From NCBI RefSeq assembly GCF_964194155.1, contig NC_135886.1:119350001-119414000 (forward strand): DNA of 64,000 bases, written 5' to 3'. The position numbers and the translations under genes are program-made. The notes beneath the pieces were generated by a model that saw only the letters and a list, made by a program, of their open reading frames with translations, ran no database searches and was not told the DNA's origin. Source of the DNA: Cetorhinus maximus (lineage: Eukaryota). Shown piece by piece: positions 3,225 to 52,613 of this stretch (the stretch's first letter is position 1; the number at the start of each line of letters is the position of its first letter).

Positions 3225-3334
3225 CTGTGAAAGCAAATTAAGAATTAAGTTTGTGGTCAAATGCATGCTCACCGAATATTTGCGTATGAAAACTGTGACC
3301 ATTTAATATCAAACCCTTTATCACTGATACTCAC

Positions 3335-3917
3335 GTTTGAAATACATGGCATTAACAAAAAAGGCACCATCAACACTAGACACATCTTTTGTGATTTCTC
3401 CCAGTTTTCCATCTGTTGTCTGAGAGGCCCATTCATTGATGGATTGGATTGTACTCCTCTTGTCCCTGAAGTTAATCTTGGAATGATCATGCTTGTAGTG
3501 CGTTTTGCTTTTCTGAACAAAGTCATCCTTGAATTTGACTGAACTTGGTCCATACAGGCGGCTGCCAATCTTCCAAGTGGTGTTGCGGGTTGTTTCATTG
3601 CTGACCTCATTAAACAATTCTGAGAAAGTAGGATGAAAAACATCATCATGCAAGTTGATGTTGAGGAGGGACTTCACCTGTTTGGCTGTTTTATCTTTGG
3701 CCCCCAGAGACATCACTCCCAAGGAGGAAGCCACCACCACAGGTGAGAAGAGGAGGTTCTCAGATGACAATTTCTGGTCTTTGACCATGGTCTTGTAGAG
3801 ATTGAGGGCCAGGTTTATTGTGCTGTCTGCTAGCATGGAGCCATGTTGCTTCAACATCATAGGATCTGCTGTTACCACAGCAAGTAGCAGGCTGAAGACT
3901 ACTAATTTCATCTCCAT
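3335..3917 (-). CDS. SERPINH1: HSP47/serpin H, coding exon 1 (signal peptide plus N-terminal serpin domain); exon starts at 3948
   Basis: [17 protein letters not shown] signal peptide; HSP47 signatures [58 protein letters not shown]; donor C|gtgagt; acceptor tttgtccaacag| at 3949. Orthologue versus paralogue status is not resolved. Confidence 0.93.
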
Positions 3918-4639
3918 GGATTTGTCCAGTAAATACAAGCCAAGAGAACTGTTGGACAAAGAATGGAATACAATTATTTCGAAGAACTCAATTTAGAGAT
4001 CCATACAGCCTATCTTAAAGTATTAGAGTATTTACAATTTGGAAAAAGAAATGCTTTCTCAGAAAGGCCTAGATTTTAACTGCCAGTAGATTTCCAGCAG
4101 GAAACCACACCATCAAGGTTAATTTCACAACACCCATGGCAGAATGAGATCTAGCCAAATTTTATGGCTTTACCTCATCCCACCACCAACTTCCCACCTG
4201 CTCTGGACAAGACATGACAGAAAATGGCAGTCTGGAGGATGCCCTCAAACAGCAGCTACATTGCGGGAAGAGTTGCATCCTGACATATGTTGGGGGCGGG
4301 TGTGGGGGACAAGGGCAGTGAGGCCGTGGCAGCTGAGGCCTATACTTTTTGTGAGCCTGGCCCCACAAAATAAGTTAAAAATAATTAAATGTTGCCTTTT
4401 TGGATTTCTTCTCGCATTAATATGCTTCTTTGCTGGGTTGGCCTGATAAAAAATCACTTGTCGTTTCCTGCTCAGGCTGCCTAGTAAAGGTTGTAGTCGG
4501 GGCCCATGACATCATTGGCACCTCACATCATTTGGCACCTGACACACGTATGAGAAAAGACTCTTGTCAGCTACAAACTGATTAAGTAGATTAAAATCGT
4601 GATTCATCAATTCTCAGCAGCTTTAGAGCATGTAAGAAA

Positions 4640-15372: not shown

Positions 15373-15395
15373 AGCAGACAAAAGACCACTCTCCC

Positions 15396-15403
15396 TTTTT
15401 ATA
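15396..15403 (-). promoter_or_regulatory. TATA box (TATAAAAA)
   Basis: Plus strand tttttata; sits between the HSE and the inferred exon 1. Confidence 0.8.
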
Positions 15404-15413
15404 ACCAAGCCGA

Positions 15414-15428
15414 GGAAAGTTCCAGAAC
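15414..15428. promoter_or_regulatory. Heat-shock element, perfect 3-unit nGAAnnTTCnnGAAn
   Basis: gGAAagTTCcaGAAc, 10 bp upstream of the TATA box; HSP47 is an established HSF1 target. Confidence 0.85.
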
Positions 15429-16779
15429 GAATTCGCTCAACGTCTGTGAAACCCGAGACGACAGCACCGCCTACATAGAAAGCAGTACAGTATATATTCC
15501 TCATGATGTCGCTTAAAAGAGATTTCAAAAATATCGTCTTAATTGAGGAACTAAATAAATTACATTCAACTTCTATTCACTTGAATAGAAGGTTTTGTAT
15601 TTTCAATTCTAGCTTCAAGTTTTAGCATTTACTTAGATAAAAGGTGTGAAAAAACTGAAAACTTTCTGAAAATCTACATGAAATCTAAAGCAATAACTAA
15701 AGTGTGAAGAGGCGGAATCACTGCAATAAGAAGTAATTCAATATCTGTTTTCGTTTTATTCTAGCACTGAAAACAATAGCATTATAGCATTATTGTTTTG
15801 GATTTCCAGCATCCGCAGTAGTTTTTTGTTTTTATAGCATTACCAACGCTACATTTTCAGTTTTAACAAGTATGTTTAAATGCAAGGTTTTATTTTTAAA
15901 GTGAGTGATTCATATCAGTTCCTGCAGAGATGAATCGATTTATTACACTAGTCGGAATGGTGTTTCAAGTCAAGGTTAGCGACATTTATGTGTTATTTTT
16001 CCTTTGAAATCTATTACTCTTCAGCATCGCTTTAAGCAAATCAACATTTGGAACAATATAAAAAGAAAACAACTCTTAGATAGATGAAATACAAATAAAC
16101 GTGGCGCAAGCATTCAAATTAAGAGCACAATTTGGTAGTGAACTTCTGTCTCGATGGGTTATTTGAAAAATAATCTAATAATGTTTTTGCATCTATCTGA
16201 GTTCCCACTAAAGCAGCGGGGCAGAGATACACGTACCCCAACCCCACGCCTGGAGCTGCCACGTTGGCAGTTAAGAAAGATACATTCTAAGTTTTCACAT
16301 CTGCACTGAGTTATTTTAGATTGACTCTTTACGTTCCAGAGTATAAATGTTCTTTTCCTCTACAACCTGCCCTGCCGACCAACACAATGCAACAATTCTA
16401 GGTTACATTTTAAGCATCATGTACGATGAAAAAAAATTGGAAGTGGTATCCATGAGTACCGGAACAAACAAAAATGTGGCGTTTCAAAAAAGAGAAATCA
16501 TTTATCCATAAAAAGGCAGCTCCAGGTCTTCAAGCATTAAAAAATGTGGGTCTGTGAATGTTCTGTCCGGTTAAGTGGTAGTGTGAGGCACCACAAACAT
16601 GATCTTCACTGCATGGCAAATCCAAGAAAAATGCAAAGAATAGCACCAACTGCTGCATATGGCCTGTTTTGACCTCTGCATTAGGATTAGGGTCAGGGCC
16701 AAAGCCTTTGACTCTGTCAAACATGAAGGTTTAAGGAATATCCCCTTCAGATTTGGCTGCCTTCCACCTACTCCACCAT

Positions 16780-25535: not shown

Positions 25536-25539
25536 TAGT

Positions 25540-25830
25540 AACGCAACTTGCTGACCGATGATCCACTGTACATGGGATATAAGCCTCCAGCTGCTGCAAG
25601 AAATAACCAACTCATTGACCAGTGACCCATTGCACACTGGCTGTAAACCTTAAGCTGCTTTAGGAAATAACCAACTTGCTGACCAGTGACCCACTGTACA
25701 CTATATATAAACCTCCAGCTGCTGCAAGAAATAACCAACTCATTGCCCAGTGACCCAGTGCACACTGGATGTAAACCTCCAACTACTACACGCAACAACT
25801 AACTTGCTGACCAGTGACCCACTGCACCCT
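25540..25830. repeat. 64-bp tandem repeat, about 4.5 units (continues at 27205-27290)
   Basis: Unit starts at 25581, 25645, 25709 and 25773; consensus aaacctccagctgctgcaagaaataaccaactcattgaccagtgacccactgcacactggatat. Confidence 0.9.
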
Positions 25831-25831
25831 A

Positions 25832-27204
25832 TTTTTTTTTTGAAAAATATACTTTATTCATAAAATATCTGGAAGAACATTACAAAATATTTCTAAATCG
25901 CCGTCACAAAAAGTGCAATCAGATTCAACTTTTACACATGGATCACGAGGTGCTTCAATACAATCAATGAATATTACAATCATTTCAATATGGTCATTAC
26001 AGACAGTCAGACAGTGCAATGGCATTGGAGTTATCAACATACATCATGTTGCACTCTGAGGTGCTTCAATACAATTATAATACAATTTGTATTCAAAGCA
26101 TACATTCATTGTGAGCTGTACAGCCCAAGGGGCTCTAAACAATTCCCAGACCCTCGGTACACTATGGCAGAAAGGTCTTAGACAGTGACCCTTCCCCATT
26201 GCGCCTTTGCGGCAGCTGCCCCAAGCTTTAGTGCATCCCTCAGCACGTTGTCCTGGACCTTGGAATGTGCCAGTCTGCAACACTTGGTCAGGGACAACTC
26301 TTTGCACTGGAAGACCAACAAGTTTCGGGCAGACCAAAGAGCGTCTTTCACCGAGTTGATGATCCTCCAGCTGCAGTTGATGTTTGTCTCTGTGTGTGTC
26401 CCTGGGAACAGCCCATAGAGCACAGAGTCCTGTGTCACAGAACTGCTCGGGTTGAACCTCGACGGAAAGCACTGCATCTCTCTCCAGACCTTCTTTGCAA
26501 AGGCACAATCCACAAGGAGGTGAACAACGGTCTCGTCCCCACCACAGCCATCTCGAGGGCAACGTGCAGAGGGAGTGAGATTCTTGGCATGTTGGAAGGA
26601 TCTGACGGGGAGGGCCTTTCTCACCACCAGTCAAGCTGGTGATGAGGCATTCTGCCAAATGACTTTGACAGTCTGCTTGGGGAACCATCCGACAGGATCC
26701 ACCATCTCCTTTTCCCACAGGGCATCTAAGACGTTACGTGCTGACCACTGCCTGATAGACTTGTGGTCAAAAATGTTAAACTGGGTATGTGGGAGCGCCG
26801 CTCCCTCGTCATTGCGGGTAAGAACCTGGTCATCAGGTGTGAGGCACTCTCGCTGTTGCTGTACGTGGCGCAGGTCTGGCCCATTCCACACTCCTGCGCG
26901 ATGGAGAGCCATCTTTCGCTTTATCTGGAGGTCGAAAATGGATCGTGTCCACTGGGACACGATGTACAAGCCTCTAGATATGGGGGGGGGGGAAAAAACG
27001 TGCCCAACATCACCCTCATACTGATGGCGGCTGCATCAAGCTGTGCGTAGACCCTCGGTACGCAAACACCAAGTGTCACTACGTGCCGAGGTTCTACCTG
27101 TCCCCGGTGTTGCGAAGGATGGGTCTGGCCACGCTGCCGTGGAACGCTCCAAGTAGTTGGACCGTGCCGTACCACCCGTCCCTGGTGGAAAAATTTATGC
27201 AGAC
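25832..27204 (-). mobile_element. Tx1/L1-clade LINE, 5'-truncated with 5' inversion (25832-26777 minus, 26778-27204 plus)
   Basis: Poly(T) tail at 25832; zinc knuckle CPRDGCGGDETVVHLLVDC on minus; upstream ORF2 part (WERRSLVIAGKNLVI...FYLSPVLRR) on plus. Confidence 0.9.
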
Positions 27205-27290
27205 AAACCTCCAGCTGCTGCAGGAAATAACCCACCCATTGACCAGTGACCCACTTGCACACTGGATATAAACCCCCAGCCGCCGCAGGC
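27205..27290. repeat. Continuation of the 64-bp tandem array
   Basis: aaacctccagctgctgcaggaaataacccacccattgaccagtgacccac followed by a partial unit. Confidence 0.85.
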
Positions 27291-28264
27291 AGCGGACGAC
27301 ATCTGTCAATCATTCTCCAGGGTGAGCGTTGATTGGTGGCTTGAGAAGTGGGCGGTGCTTGGAGTCGTACTGCCGCTCGAAGTGATGGAGGTAAAATGGA
27401 CGGCGCAGGGAAGGTGGGGAGTTCCCTGGTGAATGGCGGAGATCCGAGAGGGAGCACATGATCGCATTGGGCGCTCCGACTTCTTTGTTGAAAGCAAAAG
27501 GTGTTGCGAGGGAACCTGGATCCCCCTCGATAGGGCGGTGGGTGTGGAGGAGCCGCCATTAGATGGCCCTCCCTCTGCAGGTTTTATACCAGACGGCCCA
27601 GGGCATCCAGGAGAGAAATTGTGAAAAAGTCACTCTGACACCCAAAATGTATTCTCTTATTGAAGCATGGGTGGTTCACTGATGCTTTTACCTACATCAC
27701 TGGGAATTTTCCTTCCGGCCTCTGTGCCTTGTGATAAATGTAAAGTTCAGTGGTTTGCCTGTCACTTATGGCAACCATTCCTCGAGAGACGAAGACCACA
27801 TTGTCTTGTTTTCTTCGACGCCAGGCTTTTCGGTCCAAAATGGTGTCCTCGCGGCGCATACGTGCACTTCTGGTGCAAGCCACGCCGGATGTCATTTTGG
27901 TGAGGGTGTTAATGTACTGGAGGCAGATAGTGACACCAGTCAGTGTGCAACATTGATTTGGCACAAGTGTTGCACTTTTGGAGCACAACGCTTCAGCTAA
28001 TGGTTCCCCCCTTCAACATAGGCAGCTAAACATAAATTCAGCAGCAGGAAGACCACCCCACCCGCACTCCAGTACTATTTAATGGGATCATCAACAGCTT
28101 ACAGGTTAGTTGCTTGTTGATTTCTATTAGCAGGTGCTACAATAATAGATGTTCTGGTGACTTCTAGAGTTCCTTAAAGTTGCTAAAGTCTACAGAGAGT
28201 GGTGTGACATATGCTGAAGGAGTTTGTCCTGACTTCAAGGATTCTGCACAAACAACTTGCTCCC

Positions 28265-34960: not shown

Positions 34961-35043
34961 TATTTGAATCTAGGTGCACAGTTTTAAAAGTACATGTAAT
35001 GCCACATATATATAATACTTTATTTTGCTAGAGAAATGCGCTT

Positions 35044-35163
35044 ATGGAGCAGAAGCATGCTACCACAGTAGAAAAAATGAAACGGTCTCTCTACTACCAG
35101 CTGATGATAATTGAAAATTACCAGAAGGCCATTAGCAAAGAGCTGGGACCGCTAGTTGAATGG
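35044..35163 (+). CDS. Tudor-domain gene, first identified coding exon (exon starts at 35032; true start codon uncertain)
   Basis: Acceptor ttattttgctag|, donor TGG|gtatgt; MEQKHATTVEKMKRSLYYQLMIIENYQKAISKELGPLVEW; phase 0 joins the next exon. Confidence 0.65.
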
Positions 35164-36703
35164 GTATGTTACTGCAATCTTCAATTAACTATAGATCCCC
35201 AAGGAATAGAATGTTTTAACTTATAGCAGTAAAAGTTTTTTATTTGTTTCTAAAGTAAAGGTTCTTTGCATTGTCAAGACACTGTGTTACAATAGTTACT
35301 GGAAATTCAAATGAAAATGCACCAACAGGGCATTGAATATTGCATTCAGCCCAAATTAATGAGATCCAAGCCTTCCCTCTTCAAAGGCTAGAACAATCAT
35401 CAGTAAAGTTAATTATGCGCAACACTCCTAAAGAAACAGCCAGAAATATAAGGAGCTTGCTAATAATATCCTTTTGATATTCTGGAATTTTTGATCAGTG
35501 CATCGATTACAGGGAACTTAGTTGACTCCTCAGTCACAATCTTCTCTGTGATTAAATGTTGCCAAGTTTTGCCACTCATGGCAGGCATGCACACACTGTT
35601 GCATAGGTATCATGATAGATCTGCCCTGCTTCCTCTATCATTGGTGATATCTTTGTGCAGGTTCTTCTCCCAGAGTATCAAAAAACCTTTCTTCATTGTT
35701 TGGAGTCCACCACAGATGTTGCACCAATCAATTGATCAGATAAAGCGCAGAAAGCAATATGCTGTCTTTATTACTTAGTCCTGGACTGTTTGTAGTCTTA
35801 ATCTGTGCCTGACTCACTATCCACCAGTCTGAGCTGCAATTTCAAGAATTATAAAGATGTAGGTATTACACAGTTTGAGGGCAGTTCTGTGCATACTTCC
35901 ACAGACCCACCCCAGCTGCTGCCCTGGTAGTGATATGGTCAATGTGCTATGTCCAAGCCATACTCCTCTTGATTGTTATATCCAGGATCTTCTACTTTTT
36001 GCTGGTCTTGCTTGGCTTTGAAAGTAGCTCCACCCTAGCATCCCAGTAGTTTAGAATGGGCTGAAGATTTTAATTTACTCTAGGCTGAAATAATTACATA
36101 CTCCACAGAACCTAAATATACTTGTGATGTTAGAGGTTGTGGGGGATAGCCAGTCGGAGTTAAGCAGTGATATGAATCGATACTCTGGAGCTGTACTTAA
36201 TTACTTTTGAGACTTGGAAAATGTGTGCAAATTTTAACTGGCATAGGCATTTAGCATTAAATCTATTGAGGAAATAAGCTTGATGGAAAGGAAGGTGTAT
36301 TTTCATTCCATGGTGCTTTGACTTTGGAGAGCTGCAAAATGTATTTTTATTTTACAGACTACAAGATGATCCTCAGCGAATAACGCCCAAGAACTAACAT
36401 AGCTGCATTCCTGCAATCCTGGCCTTTTGTGCATCCCTGATTTCCTTTACCCCTCTGGCAGTCATGCCTTCAGCTGTCTAGGCATTAAGTTCTGGAATTC
36501 CTAAACCTTTACGCCTCCCTACCTGTATCATCCTTAAGATGCTGCTTAAAACCTACCTCTTTGCTCTGTAATATCTGCTCATGTGACTGTGACAGTTTTT
36601 GTCTGACAATGTTGCTGAGAAGCATCTTGGAACATTTGCACCTTTAACATCATAAAATGCAAGTTGTTGGTTAAAATTAACACATCAAAATGTATCCTTA
36701 CAG

Positions 36704-36842
36704 GTCAGATTGAATATTCAGAAGATTACCATTATGGCCGAAGAGGATTTCTGCAAGAATTACGAAATTGTCCAACATCAACTATGTCAACTGTGTAGTT
36801 CAAGTAAAGAATTGTACAAAATGCTTCTAGAAGCTAAAACAG
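36704..36842 (+). CDS. Tudor-domain gene, coding exon 2
   Basis: Acceptor tccttacag|, donor CAG|gtaact; VRLNIQKITIMAEEDFCKNYEIVQHQLCQLCSSSKELYKMLLEAKT; phase 0 to 1. Confidence 0.7.
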
Positions 36843-37821
36843 GTAACTCATCATCTGTAATAAAAACAGAAAATGCTGGAAAAACTCAGCAGGCCTGGCA
36901 GCATTTGTGGAGAGAGAAATAGAATTAATGTTTTGAGTCCATATGATTCTTCTTCTGTAACTACCTCATCACTTGTAACTAAATCTCTAAAATCTGAAAT
37001 GTTAAGATATGTCAGAAGAAACTTAAGTAATTTGCTTTTTTCCTGATTTTTAAGGAGTATGTGCTGGAACTTTCTGAATGTAAAATTCTAGAGACTAGTA
37101 GTTGATTTTTCACAATTGTATTTATGTATGTTACAAATCATATTTCCAACGGAGCAAGGATGAAAACTGTAGGGAAAGATCTGACTTTGTTTAGGTTTGT
37201 GGTACTGCTCGTTTGTCAATATTAGCTTTGAAAAAATTGAGTTGATTGCCTGATTTTTTTTTCTTCACCCCCTCCCCGCCCTCCCACTGTTTCATTACTT
37301 TTGATTCTTTTGGATTTAGCTGTTGATAACTTAGCAAATAGGTTATTATTTGGATTACTCCCAATTTACTTGCTTCACAAATTTGATGCTCTATGGTGTA
37401 ACACCTCTGAAACCTTTGAAAAGTGTAATGCTACGGACAGATGCTAGAAATAGGACTTTCAATTATATGGGGCATTGCAGATGAAAATTCAGCTATAAAG
37501 CACATTCTTGTCTTGTTCTTCTTGGTCCTTTGGTACTGACTTTGGCCCAACTCCTTAGGTTGTAATTTCACATCCTGTGTAGGGTCATTATAAGAGTTTT
37601 AAATTCAAGATCAATTATACCAAGTTACTATGTAAGCAAAGGTGCTCTCAGGAAATTAAAGGAACATTATTTTCCAGCGTTTTAAATTTAAATTGTCAAA
37701 GCATATTGCTACAGGTTAATTGTTTAAAGATCATACCTAAATTTAGCAAAGATTAGATGTTTTATTTTTCCATTCCTCATTAAGGCTTTGTCTGCCATCA
37801 CAGGCATCTTGTTTCAACTAG

Positions 37822-38770
37822 GAATTCTGACGACTGGACAACAGACTCGAACTGAGAAACTTCTTCCTATTGGAGTTCCTGCATCTGGTTCCAAAAGTTC
37901 CGTTGATGGTTTAGCTCCAGAAGATTTTATAACAGGTGTTAAGAAGAATCTAAGCACATGTATTTGTGAGGATTCTGGCATCCGTAGTCCCAAGTTTGAC
38001 CTTTCCAAAATAAATGTTTCCAGGGTAATTGGTGTGTCTTGTGAGAACTTAACATCAGAATCTAAATTGCAAAAGGAAGAACAATTTGTGAAACATTCCA
38101 CTGGTGGTTACCCTTTTTTTCACAGTCTTTCTTCAGAGGCTGACCAACCTCCAGAAGACGTTGTATCATCAAATCTACACAATGAGCTCATTGTAACAAA
38201 AGTAGAGGACAGGTTATCTACTGAAATCTCTAGCTACGCAAGCCTGTGCTTGAGGAAAGAAGATCCACATATCCTTTCTGACAGAAGAAAGTCTTCAAAT
38301 GACAATCAAACATATATAGTTCGATCGGAATGGGAAGTTTGGGACACTTTTGAATTTACTACATCGAACAGTGATACTAATGGCTGTGTTGAACCTGAAG
38401 AAGAAAAGACATGTAATGGACAAGCTGTGGTCTCAGCTCTTGATGCCACTTCATCTCAGGAATCCTTGAGCCTGAATGATGCATTGTGCCAACCAAATCC
38501 AATAGAACATATGTTGACCTCCAAAAATTGTATATTTTCTCCCCAACAACACTTGAACTCAAACAGTATATTGGAACCACTAACTGAGAGTCATTTTCCA
38601 GATTCATCAGTTGAAAGGGATATGAAACTGCCTGTAGCTAGTGATATCCCAGAATTCCAGTTTTGTCGGTGGCAGGAGGTGGAGATAAGGGTCAGCTATG
38701 CAGTTGACCCGCACTATTTTTATATACAGCACTCTAGCCAGGAGCTACCAGAACTAATGAGGCAATTAAA
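37822..38770 (+). CDS. Tudor-domain gene, large coding exon 3 (alternative in-phase acceptor at 37804)
   Basis: Within the 328-aa ORF; Ser/Glu-rich linker ending EVEIRVSYAVDPHYFYIQ...LPELMRQL, the classic extended-Tudor N-terminal strands and helix; donor AA|gtaagt. Confidence 0.85.
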
Positions 38771-40541
38771 GTAAGTGCATGAAAGAATTTTCCTACCTTA
38801 TGTTTTAAAATAATCCTGTCTTTCTAGAGTGAGTGAACAAAATTCCATAAGAACAAAACAGTAGGATGTGGAGAGTTTAATGGGGCAACAATGACATTAA
38901 TTTGGTAGTTATATATAACTTAGACATGCAATGTGCATTATAGGTGCAATATTGCTTGTTTTCTCCCCTCCCTGACTAAAAGTATAGAGCAAGACTCCAT
39001 CTCAGACTGTGATATCTGATTTTTAAATTTGGAATAAACAGTCTCCTGTGGTGTTGCATACAGGGACTCAAGACCAAGTGTAGCATTCAGGTAAAGATGG
39101 CAAGAGGCAGGACCAGGGTACACAGGCATAATTCATTTTAAAATCATACTTCTGTCCTTATTTTTGATATTATCATTATAAATTCTGATGTTCACATTTC
39201 TAATGAAAGCTACTAATAAATGCTTGTCATAATTACACCCTTCTGTCAATGGTGAAGTTGCCATGTTTCCATTGGTAAAATAGTGTAATTACAGCTTGTC
39301 AAGGTTCTGTAGGGAGTGTCCATTATAAATTTGGGCATTGAAATTCGTGATGTGAAAAGTTGCTCAGGAACATGCACCGGTGTCTTAATATTTTTAATAT
39401 ATTCCCAGTTGGTATGCATGGGCATGGTAAGTCAGAGTTAAAGATCTCAATCTTATCTGTCCCTTTTTATTTTTGTGTTTCTGTTTCTCTCTGCTTTTCT
39501 GTCATTTTCTTCTTTTGGCTTTTTATGTGAGAAGTGGTGTGTGGAATTGCATGGTGTCATGGGAAAAGGAGCCACCAGAGGCTGCCCGCAGCACTAGGAT
39601 GGATTTACAGGGAAGATATAACCCCACAAAGCACCCTTCCAAATCATTTGTGCTTCTCCCCAGCCCCTCACTCCATTCCTGTTTCCTGCCCCTTCACTTT
39701 CCCACTATCTCTTGCTTTTCCTATTATCACCTAATTCTCATCACTACGCTTTATAAGCTATAAAGCCTTAAATATAGCATAAAAATACAGCAATATTAAC
39801 TTTCTGGAGACTTTTTTGTTACTTTATTGTGATGCCTATCTCTCACTTACACTTCGAGGTACAGAATATAATTGGCTGGCTGTTTTGTGGAACTCCTGCC
39901 GTAACTGTGGCAGGAATCCAGTGGCACACCCATTACCAAATACATCAATCTTCAGCCTTGTCTGGAAGCACAATATCCATCTGACATAAACAAGATCACT
40001 TACGTGGAGGTGTGGAAAGGTTGGAGGTTATTCTAGAATTACTGGTTCCCATTCCTAATGGGAGTTAATGCATTTGCTTGCAAACATACACAAAGTTACA
40101 AGAGGGATAATGGCCTCCAGAAGAACATAAATTGGTCCTTGGTTTGTGTTGGGGCTTCAAGCCTTGGATGTGACCTGGATCCCCGAAGAAAATTAGTTTT
40201 TAAGTTATTACTGGCCCCTATTACAAAGGATGCCAAATAGTAATTGTTTCACCCAGGCTGACTAAACAACCTGCCTCAACCCAAAGATAGCAGTCAGTCA
40301 CTGGACTTTCCAATAGTGTAGAGCTGGCAGGTGCCTGAGTATACTTCTCCCATTTACAGAAGTGAATCCAGAAATCTGATGTATTAATCCATAACTTAGG
40401 ATATTTCTAGTCCCAAAAATAATCAATGCTGTGGACTCTCCATGTTGTGCATCTTCTCCAAAGACTGTGTTGGTAACCTGTTCCTAGGCCTCAGCTGAGC
40501 CAACTGCCAAAATTAACATTAGATTACCTTTTTTTTTGCAG

Positions 40542-40684
40542 CATCGAGTGCTCGAAGAACTCTGCTACGTTGTGTTGCACCCCTTTGATCAGCTCCTATG
40601 TGTGTGCTTGGCTTCCTGAAAGCAAGCAGTGGTACCGGTCTTGTGTCATCAGGATTGTGGGAAATGAAACAACTATGACACGTG
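40542..40684 (+). CDS. Tudor-domain gene, coding exon 4 (Tudor core)
   Basis: Acceptor tttttttgcag|, donor G|gtatgg; phase 2 to 1; PLISSYVCAWLPESKQWYRSCVIRI. Confidence 0.85.
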
Positions 40685-41129
40685 GTATGGGCACAGGCTG
40701 TATGGAGAGTAAGCAAGAAAATATATACTAAAAGCAGATGTAGATAATAATAGTGAATGGAATGACATTTGAGGGAAAAAAATACTAATGATATACTTGC
40801 AGGTTTTCGTAACCTGCAAATCCGTATTTTTCATTGGAGTACTAGGATTGCACAAGTAGTCGTTCTTCATGTGAGAGTGGAGTCAGTGACTGTCGACAGA
40901 GCTGGTCACCCACAGCGGGCACTAAAGCCAGTCCTAAGCCTGGCCTTGACCAACGTCTGTACATGTGCAGTGCTATATCCTAACCCATATAACATCCAAA
41001 CTGGTGCCCTGCTGAAATCAGCCAATTTGCCACATAGCAGGGAACTGAACCTATGATCTTCTGTTCTGTTTTTTGTTGCTGTTATTATAATAATTAGTTC
41101 TACATGCAGTATATCAATAACCAGGGCAT

Positions 41130-41830
41130 TATTATGATCTTGGTAGAGACCAGTAACTTTTTAGTTTTGTTCTAGAATTTGAAATCGCAGATAATTACTA
41201 AAGGAATGAAGCCACAAGGTTCACAGTTTAAAACAAAAGAATTTTATTACACAAAAATCAAAGAACATGAATGCTGTTAACTACACCCTAACTAAGATAG
41301 TCAGTTATGTTAAAGATATTAAGAATGAACACAGTTACTTATACTCTAAATCAAACTTCTTTACTTAATTTTCCTTCGCCATCCATTTGACTTACACCCT
41401 CAATAAACTCAAGTCAGATACTTACCAGAAATTGGAAGATTAACTACTTGGTCTGAGTACTGTTTCAAAGATTAGTATAAGAACTGACATTTCTTAGTCC
41501 TTCTACTTCTAGCAAGGTTGTCCCTTCAAATCTCCTCCGACCGTCCTACGGTTTAGGCTCCCCAATCAACACAGACGTCACTGACATCTTAAGTATAGCT
41601 ACCTTGGGTCAGAACTCTCCTGGTTGTAATATTCGTTAACTCTGTAGTCTTGCATCTAAAACTCTCTCTCTTTTCTTCCCTCCGCCACCCCCCGAAAACA
41701 GCAATTGGCTATTTACAATAAATCACTTGCAGAGAAATTTAGTTCTTAAAGGGGCCATCATCCCAACACAAAGCACAGATTTTTCCCAAAAGCACATAGG
41801 CCATCACATAGTGAAATTTCACCATGACTA
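41130..41830. mobile_element. Probable decayed solo LTR
   Basis: tattatga...catgacta ends with gcat/gtat flanks; internal similarity to the LTR at 7896 in reverse orientation. Confidence 0.5.
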
Positions 41831-43213
41831 GTATAGAATCATTCATGAGGGATTATTGTTGATTTTTAAAAAATTTATACTTGGGATGTGAGCATCTCTG
41901 ACAAGGCCTAGTAATTTGAGCTGTAGTTGCAAGCCCTACTGTTTAACCGTTTAATTGTCTCACTCAGGCAGGAATTCAAACTAGACCATTTAAAAAGATG
42001 GCTAAGCTAAAATCCTAAAATGTTACTTCAAACCGATATAGAACCCTCAAACTTAGAAGCATTATCAAAATCTTACAGGTGGTAAGTCTTACACACTGAG
42101 TGCCAGTGGTGGAGAGATTGAATGATCAACATGGGATGTTGATCAACCAGGCTACACTGTCTTTCATGGTATCAAGCTTCTTGAGTGTTGTTGTTGGAGT
42201 TGCCCTCATCCAGGCAAGTGGAGAGCATTCCATCACCACCTGACTGTTGCCTTGTAGATTGTGGAAAGGCTTTGGGAAGTCAGGAGGTGAGTTACACGCT
42301 GCAGAATTCCCAACCTTTGACTTGCTGTTGTAACCATAGTATTGATTTAAAACATCTGATTTTAGAGAGTGCTTTAGCAGATTTATATTTCTCTTGCAGA
42401 TTGACATCAATGTATTGTTTCATAATGAGGCAATAGTAGGTAGTTCCTTTTCATAATGCAGGGAGTCAATTTTGATAGTTAGGTTCTGGCAATGTGGAAC
42501 ATTGAGTCAGCTTGTTGTCGTAGGTTTTGTGCTCAAGGAACCCTGGTACAATGGGCCACAACTTCCAAGCTCCAGGGCTGTGAAACCCCCACCCCCCTGG
42601 AAATTCCCAAGTAAGGATTACACAGCAATTGCCTGGGAAGTGCAAACCTCTGATGAGCAATTGCCCTCCACTAGGAACCATCCAAAAATGCTATTTAAAT
42701 CACACATTTCGGATGGTTCTGACTGTTACATCAATGGTTACCCAGAAAATGTTAGAAGAAATAAACTACTTCTAGCCCCTGGGTAACTATTGTACAGATC
42801 CACTCCACTACCCCCCCCGCCCCCTCCACAGCACTCTTTTTCACCCCACAGGAACTCCCCCCTTTCCGGGTCCGACTCTTGACCCCCCCCCCACCCCCCA
42901 GCCAGGCCCAACTCCTGGATTTCCAGGGAAGTGCTTTCGAGCAGAATGGCAATCTAACTCAGTTACCACTCCATCGGAAGTTACAGCGCAATCTATTACA
43001 TACCTTTGATCACCCAGTTGGACATACTCTTCGCAAATAATAAATGAGCTTAGTCATTTAGATTTTATGATACACCAGGGTTTTTTTGCTAATCAGGTTG
43101 CAGCATATTATTGATGAAGTTATTTTTCCTCTGCACTGAGCAGTCTGTTTGAATTCATTTTCTAAAAGATGAATTTGCATTGAAGAGATAAATCTTTGAC
43201 TTTATTTTTGCAG

Positions 43214-43353
43214 ATGACTACCAACACCTTCTAGTAGAAGTCTTATGTGTGGATTATGGATTCTCTGCTTGCCTTTCATTAAGTTGTTTAAAATCTCTGC
43301 CTCCAACATATTGTGCTCTTCCCCAGCAAGCTTTATGTGTGTCTTTAGCAAAT
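43214..43353 (+). CDS. Tudor-domain gene, coding exon 5
   Basis: Acceptor tttttgcag|, donor AAT|gtaagt; phase 1 to 0; LVEVLCVDYGFSACLSLSCLKSLPPTYCALPQQALCVSLAN (DYG...LP..LPxQA Tudor signature). Confidence 0.9.
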
Positions 43354-43779
43354 GTAAGTACATAGGGATGCGAGTTTAAGAAAATTCAGCATTTGGAATT
43401 TCAGGGGGTTTTATTATATCTAATGCCAAATTAGGAACAAATAAACAAAGGTTAGGGAGGATTACTCTCTTAGTCTGATGCTGTTTATAATTACAGCTAA
43501 ACCAAAGATATTGAATGATGCCACATATGAACCATTTTTTTGGTTTTAATGTTCATCGATTGAAAAAAAAAATGGCATTTTTAAATACTGAGTTAGAAGT
43601 GATGCAAGTGTGCCACAACACCAGCGCTCAGTGCCTTAATAAGTAATGATGTTCAGATTCTGTAAGTTTTAGTAATGGAACTTCCATATCATGTAATGAT
43701 TTTTAACTGAAATATTAAGCTAATCAGTCACTGACAATGATTTACCGACATTACACCCTAAAAGGTTATTTTTACAATG

Positions 43780-44140
43780 AGATGGTGACATAGTGGTAAT
43801 GTCACTATACTAGTAATCCAGAGGCCCAGGCTAAAGTTCTGGAGACAAGGGTTCAAATCCGACCATGGCAGCTATTGGAATTTAAGTTCAATTAATAAAA
43901 TCTGGAATTGAAAGCTAGTCTCAGTAATGGTGACCATGAAACCATTGTTGATTGTCGTAAAAACCCATCTGTTTCACTAATGTCCTTTAAGGAAGGAAAT
44001 CCGCCATCCCTACGTGATCTGGCCTACATGTGACTCCAGACCCTCAGCAATGTGGCTGACTCTAAACTGCCCTCTGAAATGGTGTGGAAAGCCACTCAGT
44101 TCCAGGGCAGTCAGGGATGGGCAACAAATGCTGGCCTTGA
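43780..44140 (+). mobile_element. Near full-length tRNA-derived SINE
   Basis: A and B boxes plus the 3' tail agggatgggcaacaaatgctggcc shared with LINE family B. Confidence 0.85.
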
Positions 44141-44410
44141 AAGAGTTTTTTTTAAATGAGTGTGTGATATATTTAAGGCTGAGACAGATTTTTGGGGTCT
44201 CAGGGAAACGAGGGATATGGTGAGTGGGTGGGAAATTGGAGTTGAAGCAGAAGATTAGCCATGATCATATTGAACAGTGGGGCAAGCTTGACGGACCACC
44301 GGAGTGGTCTACTCCTATTTCTGTGTCCTTAAGTTGGGGCTTGGTTGAGGGTCAGGGTGGTGAGGTTGGAATGCTAACAAAACAATATCATATCAAATCA
44401 TCTTCTGCAG

Positions 44411-44565
44411 GTTTCTCCAATGTATGGTGTTACCTGGTCCAGGTCAGAGATCAACTGGTTCAAGAAGTCAGTGAAAAACAAAACATTCTTTGCAAGACTT
44501 TACCAAAAATCCAACATCATGACAGTGGCACTTTTCAGTGAAAGAGGGAAAATAGGGATCATGAG
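44411..44565 (+). CDS. Tudor-domain gene, coding exon 6 (SN-like subdomain)
   Basis: Acceptor tcttctgcag|, donor AG|gtatgt; phase 0 to 2; VSPMYGVTWSRSEINWFKKSVKNKTFFARL (P...WS...F motif). Confidence 0.85.
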
Positions 44566-45404
44566 GTATGTAGGCAAGACTTCCCTGTCCTTTTTGAGTT
44601 GTGATGCCCTTATTTTGATTAGTGTATGCTTTGTTTTTAATTAATGTTTACTGTAGCAGGTAAAAATCTTAATCCTTACGCATGGGCCCCTTTCACCTGA
44701 TGCACTTTATTCAAACAGGTAGTGATGGTGACAGGTATAGAATTGTCACTGTGATAGTACTTGGCAGGAGGAAATTGACTGCTTTAAGCTTGTTATTTAA
44801 GCACATCCACAGGTGGAGAGGAGAGTTCAGGCAGAAGAATATTTTATCCCTGGTTAAACTATGCGAGCCTTGCAACTTATTGTTGCCATTAGATATTTGT
44901 TGAACATCTAAATAGTTGACAGATTTTTTCAAAAGTGATTTGATTAGTTCAAACCTTCCCTTAAATGTTGCAAGGCTTCCCCTCTCTTTCACCACCACCC
45001 CTAAATTGCTACAATGCCTGTCAAGGGACCATAGACACTCTTTATGCTTTCAGGTTCCATGGTTGCCTCAGCACTAGTAAATCAATATGAATGGTAATGC
45101 CCATGTTCTTAGCAAACATCTGACTCACCATGACCACAGGAGACCTGCTAGTACGAATAATATATAAAGAAGTTTGCCCCTCAGTCATTTCACTGCTGGC
45201 TAGAATCGCGATTTCAGTAATCAAAATCTTGTTCTATATTAGTTAATACATGGGGAATAAACAGCCAGCGTCTAATCTCTCTCTTTTGCAGTGCTGTATA
45301 ATTTAGCCCAGTTTAACAATCAAAGTTACAAAGCCTGTATCAGCTTAATTTCACTTTTTTTCTTTAATTATCTTTAACTTTGATTTAACTTTGTTTTTCT
45401 TTAG

Positions 45405-45463
45405 GAGAGGGTCTAAGCTTTCCCAAAAGATGGCAGCAGCTGGGCTTGCAAGATATTCAGAAG
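45405..45463 (+). CDS. Tudor-domain gene, coding exon 7 (alternative in-frame donor after 45472)
   Basis: Long polypyrimidine acceptor ttttctttag|; phase 2 to 1; RGSKLSQKMAAAGLARYSE (terminal GLA helix of extended Tudor domains). Confidence 0.8.
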
Positions 45464-45537
45464 GTAATTGTGGTAAGTATTACAGTCAGTGCGTTATTGA
45501 ATGTTAAATTTGTTTCTTCTGTGCAATTTCAAAATAA

Positions 45538-46405
45538 TGTTATGACCAGGTGAGAAGGGGTGAACTGGCCCACCTCTGGCTCCTTGGTTGGTCACAATAA
45601 AGGTTTAAGTTTCTTTTTCACGAGGATATGCCTTTTCCAAATTCAAATGTATTTAACCGTTTATGCTGTGAGCAATAAGGAGCCAATCAAACAAGGTTTT
45701 CTTGAGTTAAAGAAGAGCAAATTTATTAACCACTAAATCCAAGAAAAAAATAATAATCATGTGATGCCACACATACAGGTATTAGAAATAAGAGTAGTTG
45801 GAGTCCAATAAAAAAAATAAAAGAATATACGGTTAACTTTCCTTGAGGCGTAGATTTTAAATGTTGCAGCCAGTTTAGGTTAGCTGGTTTCTTGGATGCG
45901 GTCCGATGTAGAAGATGTTGCAATTATTGCGAGATCTCTGTCCGCCGGTAGGTTTCTGATTGTTGACTTCTCTAACTCAAAAGAGGGAGATAGCAGCTTT
46001 TCAGCCTGTTTCGTCTGCTAAAAACTCCCTTGACACTACCTGTATCACTTGCAATCTCTTTGCAGTGGCTGGTAGTCTGGTCTTCTATACTTTGCCCATT
46101 GTGTTTTTCAAAAGGGTTTTGAGCAGGTCTCTCTGTGGCAGCCAGTGTTTCAGTATCCAGTACTTTGCATTTTAATGTCTCTTCCTTAGACAGTGACGGG
46201 CTTTGATGCATCTTTGAATTATAGGAAATGTCCCTCTCTTCACATTCCCCTGAGGATGTCTTGTTTGCTTTTTCACCTTCACCTTGGAAGATGACCTTGC
46301 ATTTTTGGGTAGTTTCTTCTATCTCATTTCAAACTGAAAGATTTTCTGTTAGTTGAAGATTGAAAAGTCATATATTTAAAAATAAAGGGGCATAGCCTCC
46401 TGACA
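45538..46405. mobile_element. Probable solo LTR
   Basis: Begins TGTTATGA, ends CCTGACA; flanks ataa/agaa (imperfect TSD). Confidence 0.6.
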
Positions 46406-46484
46406 AGAATAACAGTTTCACTTCCTAAAGTTAACTTTTAGCCTCCATAGTTTTCACAATTGTAAGTATACAAAAAAGCACCAT

Positions 46485-47094
46485 GGGCAGAATTTTCTCG
46501 TCGATGTGCAGGGGCGTCCCCCGCATGCCGACGCATAAAATGACTTGCGGTGACGGCAGGCGCGCATCCAGATGTCATCGCGCGTCATTCCAATCTTCCG
46601 TTCAGCAGGCGCCGAAAATTGGGCAGGCAAAGAGCCCAAGCAGCCTTTGCATTTTTCATGAAACCTCATCCACGGACGGGATGAGGTTTCACGAAGGGTT
46701 TGTTAAATTAATAAATATTTTTCAAACATTTGATAAACATGTCCCAAGCTCATGTTATGCTGTCACATGAGGGGACATATGTAAATGATTTATCATTTTC
46801 TTTATTTTGAACTTTGAAACTTACCTTAATCTCCCTGAGGCAGCTCTGTGCCTCGGGGAGATTTCTGCGCCCTTTCGCGTGCATGCGTGAAAGAGCACAG
46901 GCCCTGACTCTCCCTCCTCCCCCTGCCTACACAGGTAGCGCTGAGCACTACTGGCTATGCATCACGCTGGGCGGGCCTTAATTGGCCCGCCTACATAAAA
47001 TGGCAGCACACAGCTGATCGTGGGCGGCAATCGGCTCCGCACCCGCCCTCGCCCACTCCCAAACAGCCCACCCGACAGGAAGAGGATTCTGCCC
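46485..47094. mobile_element. Harbinger-type MITE with TIRs and 3-bp TSD (CAT)
   Basis: GGGCAGAATTTTC...GAGGATTCTGCCC; CAT at 46482-46484 and 47095-47097. Confidence 0.85.
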
Positions 47095-47429
47095 CATGTG
47101 TACTCTTGGCTCAATATCATGTGCTGTACACCAGTACTAGTTACCCAATTAATCACACTTTACTGTATAATATTTTCACCTGATCACATATTCAAATGCA
47201 GTTTTTTCTGTTTTTTCTGCTCTTCACAAAGGGCTACTGTTAATGTAAGTGAAGCACACTTTTTCCTTCAGAGATTTTTGTATAATGACCTGGAACACTT
47301 TCCCATCCCTAATTACAAGAGCACTGACGCCCATTGTAATACCTCTCCTATTTGTAGCTAACTGCAAAGATCAGGGTTTGAACCTGGGAGCTCCTTGTTC
47401 AGTGTGGCTCAGCTATTTTCTATATGAAC

Positions 47430-48130
47430 AAGAACTTGGATTTAAATAGGACCTTTAACATAGTAAAACATCCCAAGGCATTCCGCAGGAGTGTTATCAA
47501 ACAGTACGTGACACGGAGCAATGAGCCACATAATGAGATAGTAGGACAAATGAGCAGAAGTTTAGTTTTACGAAGCATCACAAAGGAGGAAAGAGAGGTA
47601 TGGGGGGAAATTCCAGAGCTTAGAAGCTTGACAGTTGAAGGCATGGCAGCAAATGGTGGAGTAGTTAAAATTGGGGACGCACAAGATGTCAGAATTGCAA
47701 GAGTGCAGAGATCTTTGAGGGTTGTAGGGCTGGAGCAGGTTACAGAGAGAAGGAAAGTCTTGGCCATGGAAGGATTTGAAAATAAGAATAAAAATTATAA
47801 AATGGTGGCATTGCTGGACTGAGAGCCAGCGTAGATCAGCGAGCATGGGGTGATAAGTGAACAGGACTTGTTGTGATTTAGGATATGTGCAGCAGTATCT
47901 TGATGAGCTCAATTTTATGGAAAGCAGAAAATGGGAGGCTGGCCACGAGAGCATTGAAATAATTAAGTCTAGAATAACAGACATGGATGAGAATTTCAGC
48001 GGTAGGTGAGCAAAGTTGGGCGATGTTACAGAGGTAAAAGTAGGCGGTCTTAGTGATGGAGCGGGTAAGTGGTTGGAAGATCATCTCAAGTCCAACACGA
48101 TATTGAGGTGTGAACAATCTGGTTCAGCAA
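47430..48130 (-). mobile_element. L2-type LINE 3' part
   Basis: ITKTAYFYLCNIAQL...EILIH...SRLNYFNAL peptide and L2 tail. Confidence 0.8.
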
Positions 48131-48299
48131 TTAAATCTCCTGAATATCAGAGGAAACTGTAATTCAAATCTGTACCTGCAAAGAAATATTGCACTTCCTT
48201 ATCATTAATATACCTTCTTAAATATTAATATTGTTTTGAATGGTTCTAAACACTGGTGGCTAAAAAACTTCTGGGTGAGAGATTTTTTTTTACTTAAAG

Positions 48300-48388
48300 C
48301 TTCACCCAAAACTGGAGCAAGTATTCCGCTTTACTGGAAACAACGCCTTGTAAAGTTACTGTCAGAACCAACCAACTTAAGAAAATGA
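48300..48388 (+). CDS. Tudor-domain gene, candidate last coding exon
   Basis: Acceptor ttttttttacttaaag|; phase 1 gives ASPKTGASIPLYWKQRLVKLLSEPTNLRK*; donor CAG|gtatgt 4 nt after the stop; no homology support. Confidence 0.45.
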
Positions 48389-48629
48389 CCAGGTATGTTC
48401 CAATGTGTAATAATTATGTAGGTAAGAGGAAGCTGGGTATGCTACAAGCAGCAACGCGTCAAGGGTCCAGATAGTACTGAAGGCTTTTGTAGCTAATGAA
48501 CAGCACCAGAATCCAAAGCTCTTATCGGTGGCTTCAGTTGTATTCAATGTTACCTATAAAGGAAGAAACTTGTATTTTCTTGAAACAAAAGAATGCAGCA
48601 ACAAATTCTTGGATGATAAATCCTAACAC

Positions 48630-50020: not shown

Positions 50021-52613
50021 TTTCTATCACCATGCTAGCAGAAGTGATTATTCTCATTGTAAACATATTGTACTATTTTGTACAAATTGCAAAAAAATAC
50101 TGTACAACTATATGTTTAAGGTAGTTGTAGAGAAGTTTGAAGGATCTGCTTTTGTTTTCTAAATGATTTTTTTTTTCCCTTATGCAGACTGGATATTGTT
50201 GAGTTCTGATTTGGTGTCAAGGCCAATACATATGGGTAAAAAAGCTGGACTGCTCAGCCTTTCCTCATTTCCAGCTTGGAATTTGGTTTAATTTGGCAGC
50301 ACGCCAGTCAGTGGATTTTCATAAAATTCCTTTCTGTATTATTGGAACACATTTGTCAATCTGTTCATTTTAAAGGATTAATCCATGTATTAAAATGTCA
50401 TGCAAAGATGAAAAGCACATTAGTTAGTGACCATCTTCTCAACAGTTAGGGATGGGCAACAAATGGCTCACATCCCATGAACGAATAAGAAAAATCAAAG
50501 AATGTTGGAGGCCTTTATGTTTTAGAGTGCTTGATGCCATAAACCATTTCACTGATTGCTATAATTATTGTTTTAGTGTAGTTATGATGACTGTCTTGAT
50601 GTTACTTTAACTTTTTAAAGTCAGTTGGGTTATTTATGGTAGCAACCGCTCACTGTTGGACACTTACAGGGTGTGTTCACTTTGTTTTCTTCATGATTAC
50701 ATTGAATTCCACAGAAACCACAACATGGAAACAGACCTAGCATGTCTTTGTTGGTATTTATCCCCCAGGCATCAGACTTTATAATACCATATGCCTGTTC
50801 CGTTTTTATATCCCATTTATTCTTCAGCCTCATTATGTTTTTTTTAAAACAAAGCTTTCACCCTGTCCTAAATTGCTTGAATTTACTCTTTTATCGATGT
50901 TCCCTCATTTTAGACCCCAGCTGGTAACCATATTTTTCTATCTATTCTGTCCTATAATCTCCTGTGTTCTTAAAAAAAAATTTTTTTCAAGTTTTCAGAT
51001 TTATGTTTCCTAATACTAGAAGAATCCTAGCAGATTGGTAATGTAGCCCTTTTCTTGTGTCTCATTGCTCCCATAATTTGGAGTTCAACAGTACTCTTAA
51101 ATGTGGTCTTATTAAGATTTTTATTTAGATCCACATCTGAATCTCAACTTGAGCATTCTATACATCTTACCATAAAATGCAGTATTCCATTAGCTTTTTT
51201 TATAGCCTTGTGTAATTGAGCTGCTGCTTTTGGTGTCTTACGAACCTGAATCCCCAAATCTTTCTAGTCCTACCCATCATCCAGCAATCTGCCAATAAAA
51301 GTATAATTATTCTTTATTTTTTTCCAAAATGTACCACATTTTATCAATATCTCCTTCCTTTGGTCCCCAGAATTATTTGTAGTGCCTCCTATTGTAGTCT
51401 GATTTGCAAATTTGGACGCCACCTCTTGAGCCATATATTCAAATCATTGCTATACATGGTGCACAGAATCAGTCCCAGAAGAGAATTCAATGCTCTAATT
51501 ATGCTGGAAAAACTACCGTTAAGTCCTACTCACTGTTTCCTTTCTAGCCAAATTGTAATCCAATTTGCAACCCTTCTGCTACTTTCATATCTGTTGATCT
51601 TCTCCATTAGTCTCCTTTTGTAATACTTTATCAAAGGTTTTCTGAAAGTCCACATCCACTGAATTTCCACCATTTCTTCCTGACACCACCACTTTAACTA
51701 TATGTTGAATTCGTTAATCTCCCTCTTTATTCCAGTATGTGGCTAAAATCAACATGATCTGTGGGGTTTCCCTGGCCTCATTGAGCATTCATTCATTGGT
51801 ATTTTCAGAGGAGGTTCAAGTAGGAGTCTTTTGTCTGATGTCCAGCAATACTGAAGCTAATAGTAGATTTCTCCCAGTCACCACATTGTAAAATTAGCCA
51901 TATTCATCACAGACCACAGATCAAATCTAGAAGTTTCTTGGTGTGTGTGGCTCTGTATCTCAACTCATGATGTATTTATTGACTGAGATAATTATTAATA
52001 AACTTTTATGAGAAGGGGAATGCCATGTGGGTTTATTTTGTATAATGCTGATCTAAGGCATTTATCCTACATGCACCAATTCATAGTCCAACCTTGGATT
52101 TATTATATCACCTACAATGGCTTCTCTTCCCACTCATGCACCATTTATCTTTCCTTGGGCGCATCCTATGCTGCCCCTTGCAACGTCACCCAAAAGCGTA
52201 ACATTCATTTTCATCCGTACACTGATGGCACTTGGCTCTACCTTACCACTCTTTTGCTGTTGCTAATTTGTCAGATTGCTTATCTGACATTTAGAACTGG
52301 ATGAAGACATTTAGTACTTGGGAATACTGAAGCCAATGGCCTGAATCTTCCAACGTCCAAAGCAGCGAAATGTGGACTTAAGTCTGTGCTGCGCATCAGG
52401 ACCCTGCAGAAGTCCAGGTGCACACACATGCGCTGTAATTGTCCAGAAAATTTAAACTTCCAATGGGCTGATTTGCGCTGCCTGGGACTCTCCGCATAAG
52501 TCTCAGACACTGAGCTCAGTGTTGGAAACTTGGGCTAGATAAGTGGGACTTAGCTTGATACTTACCCTGGAAATGTTACACAATTTAATCTCTGGTGTAA
52601 CACGGAGATTAGC

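Follow-up and report, generated by a model that had tools for sequence, protein, structure and literature searches.

A single extended-Tudor gene of jawed fishes in Cetorhinus maximus, with a broken methyl-arginine cage and a possible adaptor role in piRNA granules

In Drosophila, Krimper combines a self-interacting N-terminal coiled coil, a first extended Tudor domain (eTud1) that lacks the methyl-arginine cage, binds unmethylated Ago3, and bears a latch helix, a zinc finger, and a second extended Tudor (eTud2) of canonical type, as described in excerpts of two papers (PMC8249470, PMC12526068). The second excerpt also describes cage-less extended Tudors as employing varied surfaces (PMC12526068), and the excerpted parts of two reviews enter Krimper without a mouse or human counterpart (PMC12147562, PMC12138184). 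Here we describe a gene found in 64,000 nucleotides (nt) of Cetorhinus maximus DNA (GCF_964194155.1, NC_135886.1 119,350,001-119,414,000), hereafter the window, whose positions are used throughout. The locus is a real, uncharacterised, single extended-Tudor gene. In the explanation that we favour, and to which we give an even chance, it is a single-copy spliced gene of jawed fish whose product of 612 amino acids (aa) acts as a methylation-independent adaptor in the PIWI-interacting RNA (piRNA) granules of germ cells.

The fish protein shares with Krimper an N-terminal helical domain (N-helix), a long linker, and an extended Tudor that lacks the cage and has an additional C-terminal helix behind it. 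In contrast to Krimper it has neither the finger nor the second Tudor, so a monomer cannot bridge two PIWI proteins. By these two defining parts it is not Krimper; by analogy, it may work like Krimper's front half. Its closest relative is an unnamed lamprey protein of 1458 aa (LOC116938743, P0118). This protein and one from starfish (LOC110974069, P0206), both annotated as "uncharacterized", comprise an N-helix, Tudor A, a long linker, Tudor B, a WDP motif, a CCCH finger, and Tudor C. They resemble Krimper in the CCCH finger and the further Tudor, with one Tudor more than Krimper, and are candidate Krimper-type proteins outside insects. The fish protein has their N-helix, linker, and Tudor A in order, and lamprey is its sister group in the trees; the two relatives differ in an intact Tudor A cage and in about 950-1100 more residues with two Tudors and the CCCH finger.

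RNF17/TDRD4 (Qin/Kumo) likewise has a helical region before its extended Tudors and a long loop ahead of the first Tudor's last helix; however, it has a RING/B-box and several Tudors where the fish protein has one, and it is a separate gene on contig C7 of genome G000. TDRD1 and TDRD2/Papi are the best solved matches of the extended Tudor, and structures of TDRD2 and Papi exist with unmethylated PIWI peptide. The differences lie in the MYND domain, four Tudors, and intact cage of TDRD1, and in KH domains.

The extended Tudor domain and its methyl-arginine cage

The single complete extended Tudor of the original prediction was recovered with PF00567: a single exon suffices to exceed the cut-off (29.7 bits), and all five full orthologues scanned do so as well (49-65 bits). 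Elements resembling staphylococcal nuclease (SN) flank the Tudor core on both sides: the family profile aligns with TDRD1 structure 5M9N over positions 15-182 of 246 (E 8e-21). The closest solved structures to the Tudor model include TDRD1, Papi, and TDRD2. The match to TDRD1 has a Z score of 14.3 and a root-mean-square deviation of 1.7 over 87 aligned residues; the Z score to Tudor-SN is also 14.3. The model resembles extended Tudors generally and supports mainly the core.

The original prediction overlooked that the methyl-arginine cage is broken. Its residues here are Leu, Tyr, Cys, Tyr, and Phe, versus Phe, Tyr, Tyr, Tyr, and Asn in TDRD1. In each of the 15 jawed-fish proteins checked, at most two of the four aromatic residues are present and the Asn is missing. 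The fish protein is an extended Tudor and, judged by these residues, not a canonical reader of symmetric dimethylarginine. The cage of Tudor A is intact in lamprey and starfish, so its loss in jawed fish likely came with or after the truncation described below. The most conserved family-specific stretch is not the cleft; it consists of the SN-side loop and the last helix, and both the loop and the C-terminal helix are conserved in a 21-row alignment. The N-helical domain is also conserved, and the full-length model (predicted local distance difference test, pLDDT, 29.6) places helices at 15-103 with pLDDT up to 60. The C-terminal helix is predicted at 210-226 of the Tudor model, where its placement is unreliable. 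An E-[LIV]-W-D motif in the linker was found in 24 of 24 jawed-fish members checked and is invariant in the 21-row alignment.

Gene structure, evidence of function, and distribution

The original prediction gave the coding exons as 35044-35163, 36704-36842, 37822-38770, 40542-40684, 43214-43353, 44411-44565, 45405-45463, and 48300-48388. All eight are present with the predicted lengths and sum to 1794 nt (597 aa) with one stop; the seven introns are all GT-AG and the phases agree. The predicted Ser/acidic linker of about 280 aa also exists (15% Ser, 15% Asp plus Glu), at a measured length of 274 aa. Comparison with relatives shifts two splice sites and adds a likely first and a likely last exon, giving a revised frame of 1839 nt and 612 aa. 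The large-exon acceptor moves from 37822 to 37804, because the six residues gained occur in orthologues, and the donor of the 59-nt exon moves from 45463 to 45472, which adds three residues also present in orthologues. What had been taken as the first exon, starting at Met 35044, is an internal exon with its acceptor at 35032. The revised features, all on the plus strand, are as follows.

27267..27272 (+): TATA box (TATAAA) of the putative promoter, in a CpG-rich stretch at about 26500-28000
27300..27390 (+): likely first exon, 5' edge approximate; start codon at 27385 plus Glu, then a phase-0 donor
35032..35163 (+): coding exon in which the N-terminal helical domain begins; single copy in G000
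36704..36842 (+): coding exon with the remainder of the helical domain
37804..38770 (+): 967-nt exon with the Ser/acidic linker, which bears the conserved E-x-W-D motif, and with the opening strands and helix of the extended Tudor
40542..40684 (+): first half of the Tudor core, cage positions Leu439 and Tyr446 (612-aa numbering); both junctions occur in processed copies
43214..43353 (+): second half of the Tudor core, cage positions Cys474, Tyr477, and Phe479 (canonically Asn); the exon that alone matches PF00567
44411..44565 (+): SN-like part with the family loop, consensus LF.EKGK.G.MRRG; single copy
45405..45472 (+): last helix of the SN-like part; donor 45472
48300..48392 (+): last coding exon with the conserved C-terminal helix; stop at 48386-48388, donor after 48392
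50188..50394 (+): likely non-coding last exon, 3' end approximate; strong acceptor, resembles the C-terminal extension of sawfish P0024 when the stop is read through

The exon ending in ATG GAG before gtaaaa at 27390 is likely the first exon. A single ATG lies between the TATA box and this donor, orthologues carry Met-Glu at the joint, and isoform P0011 joins the first exon to the exon after next; the direct match of the first exon to P0016 is weak (E 4). The promoter and start site are predicted; the CpG observed/expected ratio around them is 0.48-0.75, versus 0.27 for the whole window. At the other end, the donor at 48392, 4 nt past the stop, likely splices to the non-coding exon at 50188, and candidate poly(A) signals follow at 50389, 51294, and 51997. 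Contigs of run X3, assumed to be RNA, end at 37803 and 38770 with further letters, a weak hint of splice edges. Two database records that match window exons by eye (P0029 and P0013) divide the gene into two; the model corrects this split annotation as well as the connexin fusions considered below.

Upstream of the gene, a scan of 15.5-35 kb for RING/B-box exons yielded repeat-like candidates only, and a Cys-x2-Cys frame at 31833 was rejected, having neither Pfam support nor an orthologue counterpart. A 64-bp tandem repeat (4.5 copies, 25539-25827) has a unit resembling the TATA-containing stretch at about 27200-27290 of the putative promoter, from which it is separated by a 1.4-kb retroelement fragment that we take to be Tx1-like.

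The gene is single copy in G000, and three intronless fragments of it with unrelated flanks lie on other contigs, at C10:76.16 Mb (L048), C25:38.70 Mb (L047), and C1:196.04 Mb (L049). The C10 and C25 fragments span three junctions and agree with the spliced model at 84-86%, whereas the C1 fragment crosses the middle joint only. At the three joints the C10 fragment agrees with the spliced sequence at 23/30, 22/30, and 25/25 positions, compared with 17, 19, and 20 for the exon-intron sequence; the C25 values are 25/30, 22/30, and 22/25 versus 18, 17, and 18, and the C1 values at the middle joint are 20/30 versus 17. Because the intact frame is kept across jawed fish and the processed copies carry three junctions, the frame is not due to chance. 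Splicing is documented by these copies at three junctions, and orthologues support the remaining ones. Full-length relatives P0003, P0022, and P0053 sit on assembled contigs of 2156-2762 nt, which fits spliced transcripts. Contigs from four sets assumed to be RNA, aligned to 20 kb and swamped by repeats, gave no exon joint among the 15 of 854 joints listed. The fixation of processed copies would imply mRNA in the germ line or early embryo. All three fragments stop no more than about 13 nt from where exon 44411 begins, despite their unrelated flanks; this shared end may reflect a preferred break or priming site in the mRNA, or one early copy that was later dispersed.

The C10 and C25 copies were used to polarise changes in 95 codons, leaving out six three-way sites. 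Synonymous and non-synonymous changes number 8 each on the branch leading to the gene (omega 0.29, binomial p 0.015), which points to purifying selection and not to a ratio near 1; the processed copies have omegas of 0.55 and 1.03. Six elasmobranch orthologues are 66-89% identical to the protein in the Tudor and tail, 30-72% in the linkers, and 58-82% in the N-helix, which five of them have.

With the large exon as query, 4 of 2779 candidates came back, each a single-Tudor protein from a shark or ray; with the Tudor part, 10 of 255 did, exclusively from elasmobranchs. When 1.84 billion representatives were searched with a profile, 1127 matched, and the best 150 of these were examined. The domain scored above 95 bits in 36 of these, namely 34 family members, one lamprey protein, and one starfish protein. 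Named members come from coelacanth, sturgeon, gar, bichir, eel, arapaima, pike, pipefish, swordtail, characin, crucian carp, flounder, and arowana; rays also have orthologues, and no member carries a gene name. In a quick tree that left out two short rows, all unnamed members placed fall among elasmobranchs or ray-finned fish, so coelacanth is the sole lobe-finned member seen. No tetrapod occurs among the 34 family matches in the best 150 of 1127 or among the 15 named matches, and no mammalian counterpart was found among them, in agreement with the original prediction. Its further suggestion of a lineage-restricted factor holds for jawed fish as a whole but not for sharks, since bony fish and coelacanth have orthologues. 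This distribution points to a family over 400 million years old, on vertebrate divergence times, and outside the TDRD1-15 list. Our literature search, whose names did not include a zebrafish gene id, returned no description of the fish single-Tudor family and no mention of five elasmobranch accessions. In alignment A6, columns 200-245 and 400-415, ray-finned linkers have extra motifs (consensus KFGP.L.N and QHQKQTSSQL) that elasmobranchs lack.

Ancestry and probable role

The family Tudor profile scores 149 bits on lamprey Tudor A and 100 on its starfish counterpart, and at most 78 on any other domain compared. In a phylogeny of 73 domains the family is a clade with support of 100/95; it is joined by lamprey Tudor A (100/97) and then by starfish Tudors A and B (98/81), with the bootstrap not fully settled. 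A tree of 28 domains recovers the lamprey link at 95/91. The N-helix aligns weakly with the lamprey and starfish N-termini (67 columns, E 0.003), compared with E 0.09 for the RNF17 coiled coil and E 0.23 for a reversed control. These comparisons suggest an older gene of the form Tudor-Tudor-CCCH-Tudor, still whole in lamprey and starfish, whose back half would have disappeared in the jawed-fish ancestor. Jawed fish would have kept the N-helix and first Tudor; the remaining Tudor would then have lost its cage, and the gene would later have been lost in tetrapods. No WDP-CCCH match was found in G000 or within 80 kb downstream of the gene, in searches that went exon by exon, so the absence of the back half is not proven.

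By analogy, an adaptor in the piRNA pathway or nuage is the most likely role of the fish protein. The fish protein resembles the front of the Krimper layout and the lamprey and starfish proteins resemble the whole, which favours a nuage adaptor. A stronger claim, which we hold to be possible yet doubtful, is that Krimper is not confined to insects: lamprey and starfish would have full-length Krimper-type proteins, and jawed fish a half-Krimper whose dimerising helix, methylation-blind Tudor, and latch helix pass unloaded PIWI into ping-pong. If so, the half-Krimper would be a piRNA factor that has been overlooked and can be tested in zebrafish, and its loss in tetrapods would have helped reshape the mammalian pathway. 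The presence of the family in carp-family fish makes a knockout in a model fish probably feasible, and if the family works in ping-pong, how vertebrates pair two PIWI proteins becomes directly testable. Should it not, the family still fills a gap among vertebrate Tudor proteins, and its loss of methyl-arginine reading is dated.

Several results weigh against this interpretation. The structural models are weak, with pLDDT of 58.8 for the Tudor part, below 50 for residues 170-206, and still lower for the full-length model. SND1, a somatic extended-Tudor protein, ties as the best structural match. Krimper eTud1 gave no direct sequence match and does not appear among the fold matches listed, an absence that is no evidence either way; eTud2 (7CFD) matches the lamprey/starfish profile weakly (E 0.009-0.05), below other extended Tudors. 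Moreover, fish retain Tudor A, whereas the position of Krimper eTud1, just before the CCCH finger, is that of Tudor B. The starfish link has support of 98/81 in one tree and is without resolution in the other, and a grouping of the family with the first Tudors of RNF17 is not rejected by approximately unbiased (AU) tests (p 0.17, or p 0.32 when lamprey Tudor A is included). Fixed retro-fragments arise from broadly expressed genes too, and the contrast in selection between the gene and its copies is not significant over the 95 codons (Fisher p 0.21). In a search of the atlas, RNF17 ranked below the top matches of the lamprey protein, which were unnamed arthropod clusters (766 and 654 aa) and a Tudor cluster in which 14% of members have CCCH; we treat this as a lead only.

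The protein could instead be a scaffold of RNA granules outside the germ line, a cage-less extended Tudor of somatic cells that is possibly co-expressed by read-through with a GJB1-like connexin. This connexin (L005:7288-8148) lies 33 kb downstream on the same strand, and eight database records (P0004, P0020, P0026, P0098, P0099, P0181, P0184, and P0221), from sharks, rays, sturgeon, gar, eel, and other teleosts, fuse the Tudor protein to it. The fused records indicate a conserved adjacency. Both neighbours of the Tudor gene, the connexin and an HSP47-like serpin, are somatic genes, and the SND1 match points the same way. However, the joints differ among the fused records, and a true fusion in G000 was rejected, as the reading frame does not carry across the joint, which is flanked by stops. 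The genome carries the three processed fragments as fixed copies, and the multi-Tudor relatives belong to a class that, in an excerpt of one review, is tied to Piwi number (PMC12147562). We regard a somatic role as unlikely.

Descent from RNF17/TDRD4 was the proposal of the original prediction, which called the gene a shortened RNF17-like paralogue. A duplicate of the RNF17 front would have kept the coiled coil and first Tudor, lost the RING, B-box, and later Tudors, and now tune ping-pong as an RNF17-like competitor. The AU results speak for it, the loop ahead of the last helix is similarly long in the shark RNF17 exon on C7, and an "RNF17-like" atlas cluster scores 0.92 (rank 10). Against this, RNF17/Qin-like domains reach at most 75 bits where lamprey Tudor A reaches 149, and the profile alignment covers 161 columns at 24% compared with 202 at 33% for lamprey/starfish. 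RNF17 first Tudors form their own clade in the trees, which contained no full vertebrate RNF17, and both careful trees group the family with lamprey. The C7 exon also lacks an intron where the Tudor gene has one after 44565. The gene is not a part of RNF17 itself, whose exons lie at C7:50.74 Mb in G000, and no zinc-finger family, RING and B-box included, was found in any jawed-fish member scanned; the members begin at the helical domain. A shortened RNF17 is therefore not the best reading, and we consider this origin distinctly improbable.

It is also quite improbable, in our view, that the protein is a germline adaptor for a partner other than PIWI (a helicase such as Tdrd9, Tdrd12, or Vasa; Maelstrom; or a trimming nuclease), bound without a latch through the SN-like surface as by the cage-less Tudors of Tejas and Vreteno: the varied surfaces of such Tudors in the excerpted account (PMC12526068) and the family-specific conservation of the SN-side loop and last helix allow for it, but the N-helix and C-terminal helix together fit the Krimper layout.

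Neighbouring genes and other Tudor loci

The Tudor gene faces, head to head, a serpin of the HSP47/SERPINH type that ends in HDEL (window 3321-3992 on the minus strand, 15395-15430, L012). The likely promoter of the serpin contains a TATA box together with a three-unit heat-shock element, the latter by a consensus that we assume. At L010:1809 (+), a frame of 229 aa presumably encodes a transposase resembling PIF/Harbinger.

Other Tudor loci in G000 lie on C2, C6, C7, C9, C15, C21, and C37. Two further loci, at C5:18.95 Mb and on C2554, each consist of one open frame, of 2220 and 1728 aa respectively, that encodes many Tudor domains; we take these to be TDRD6- and TDRD15-like. On the connexin side, Trp replaces the stop of G000 in the skate fragment P0033 and in two ray fusions; read-through may therefore be real in some rays.

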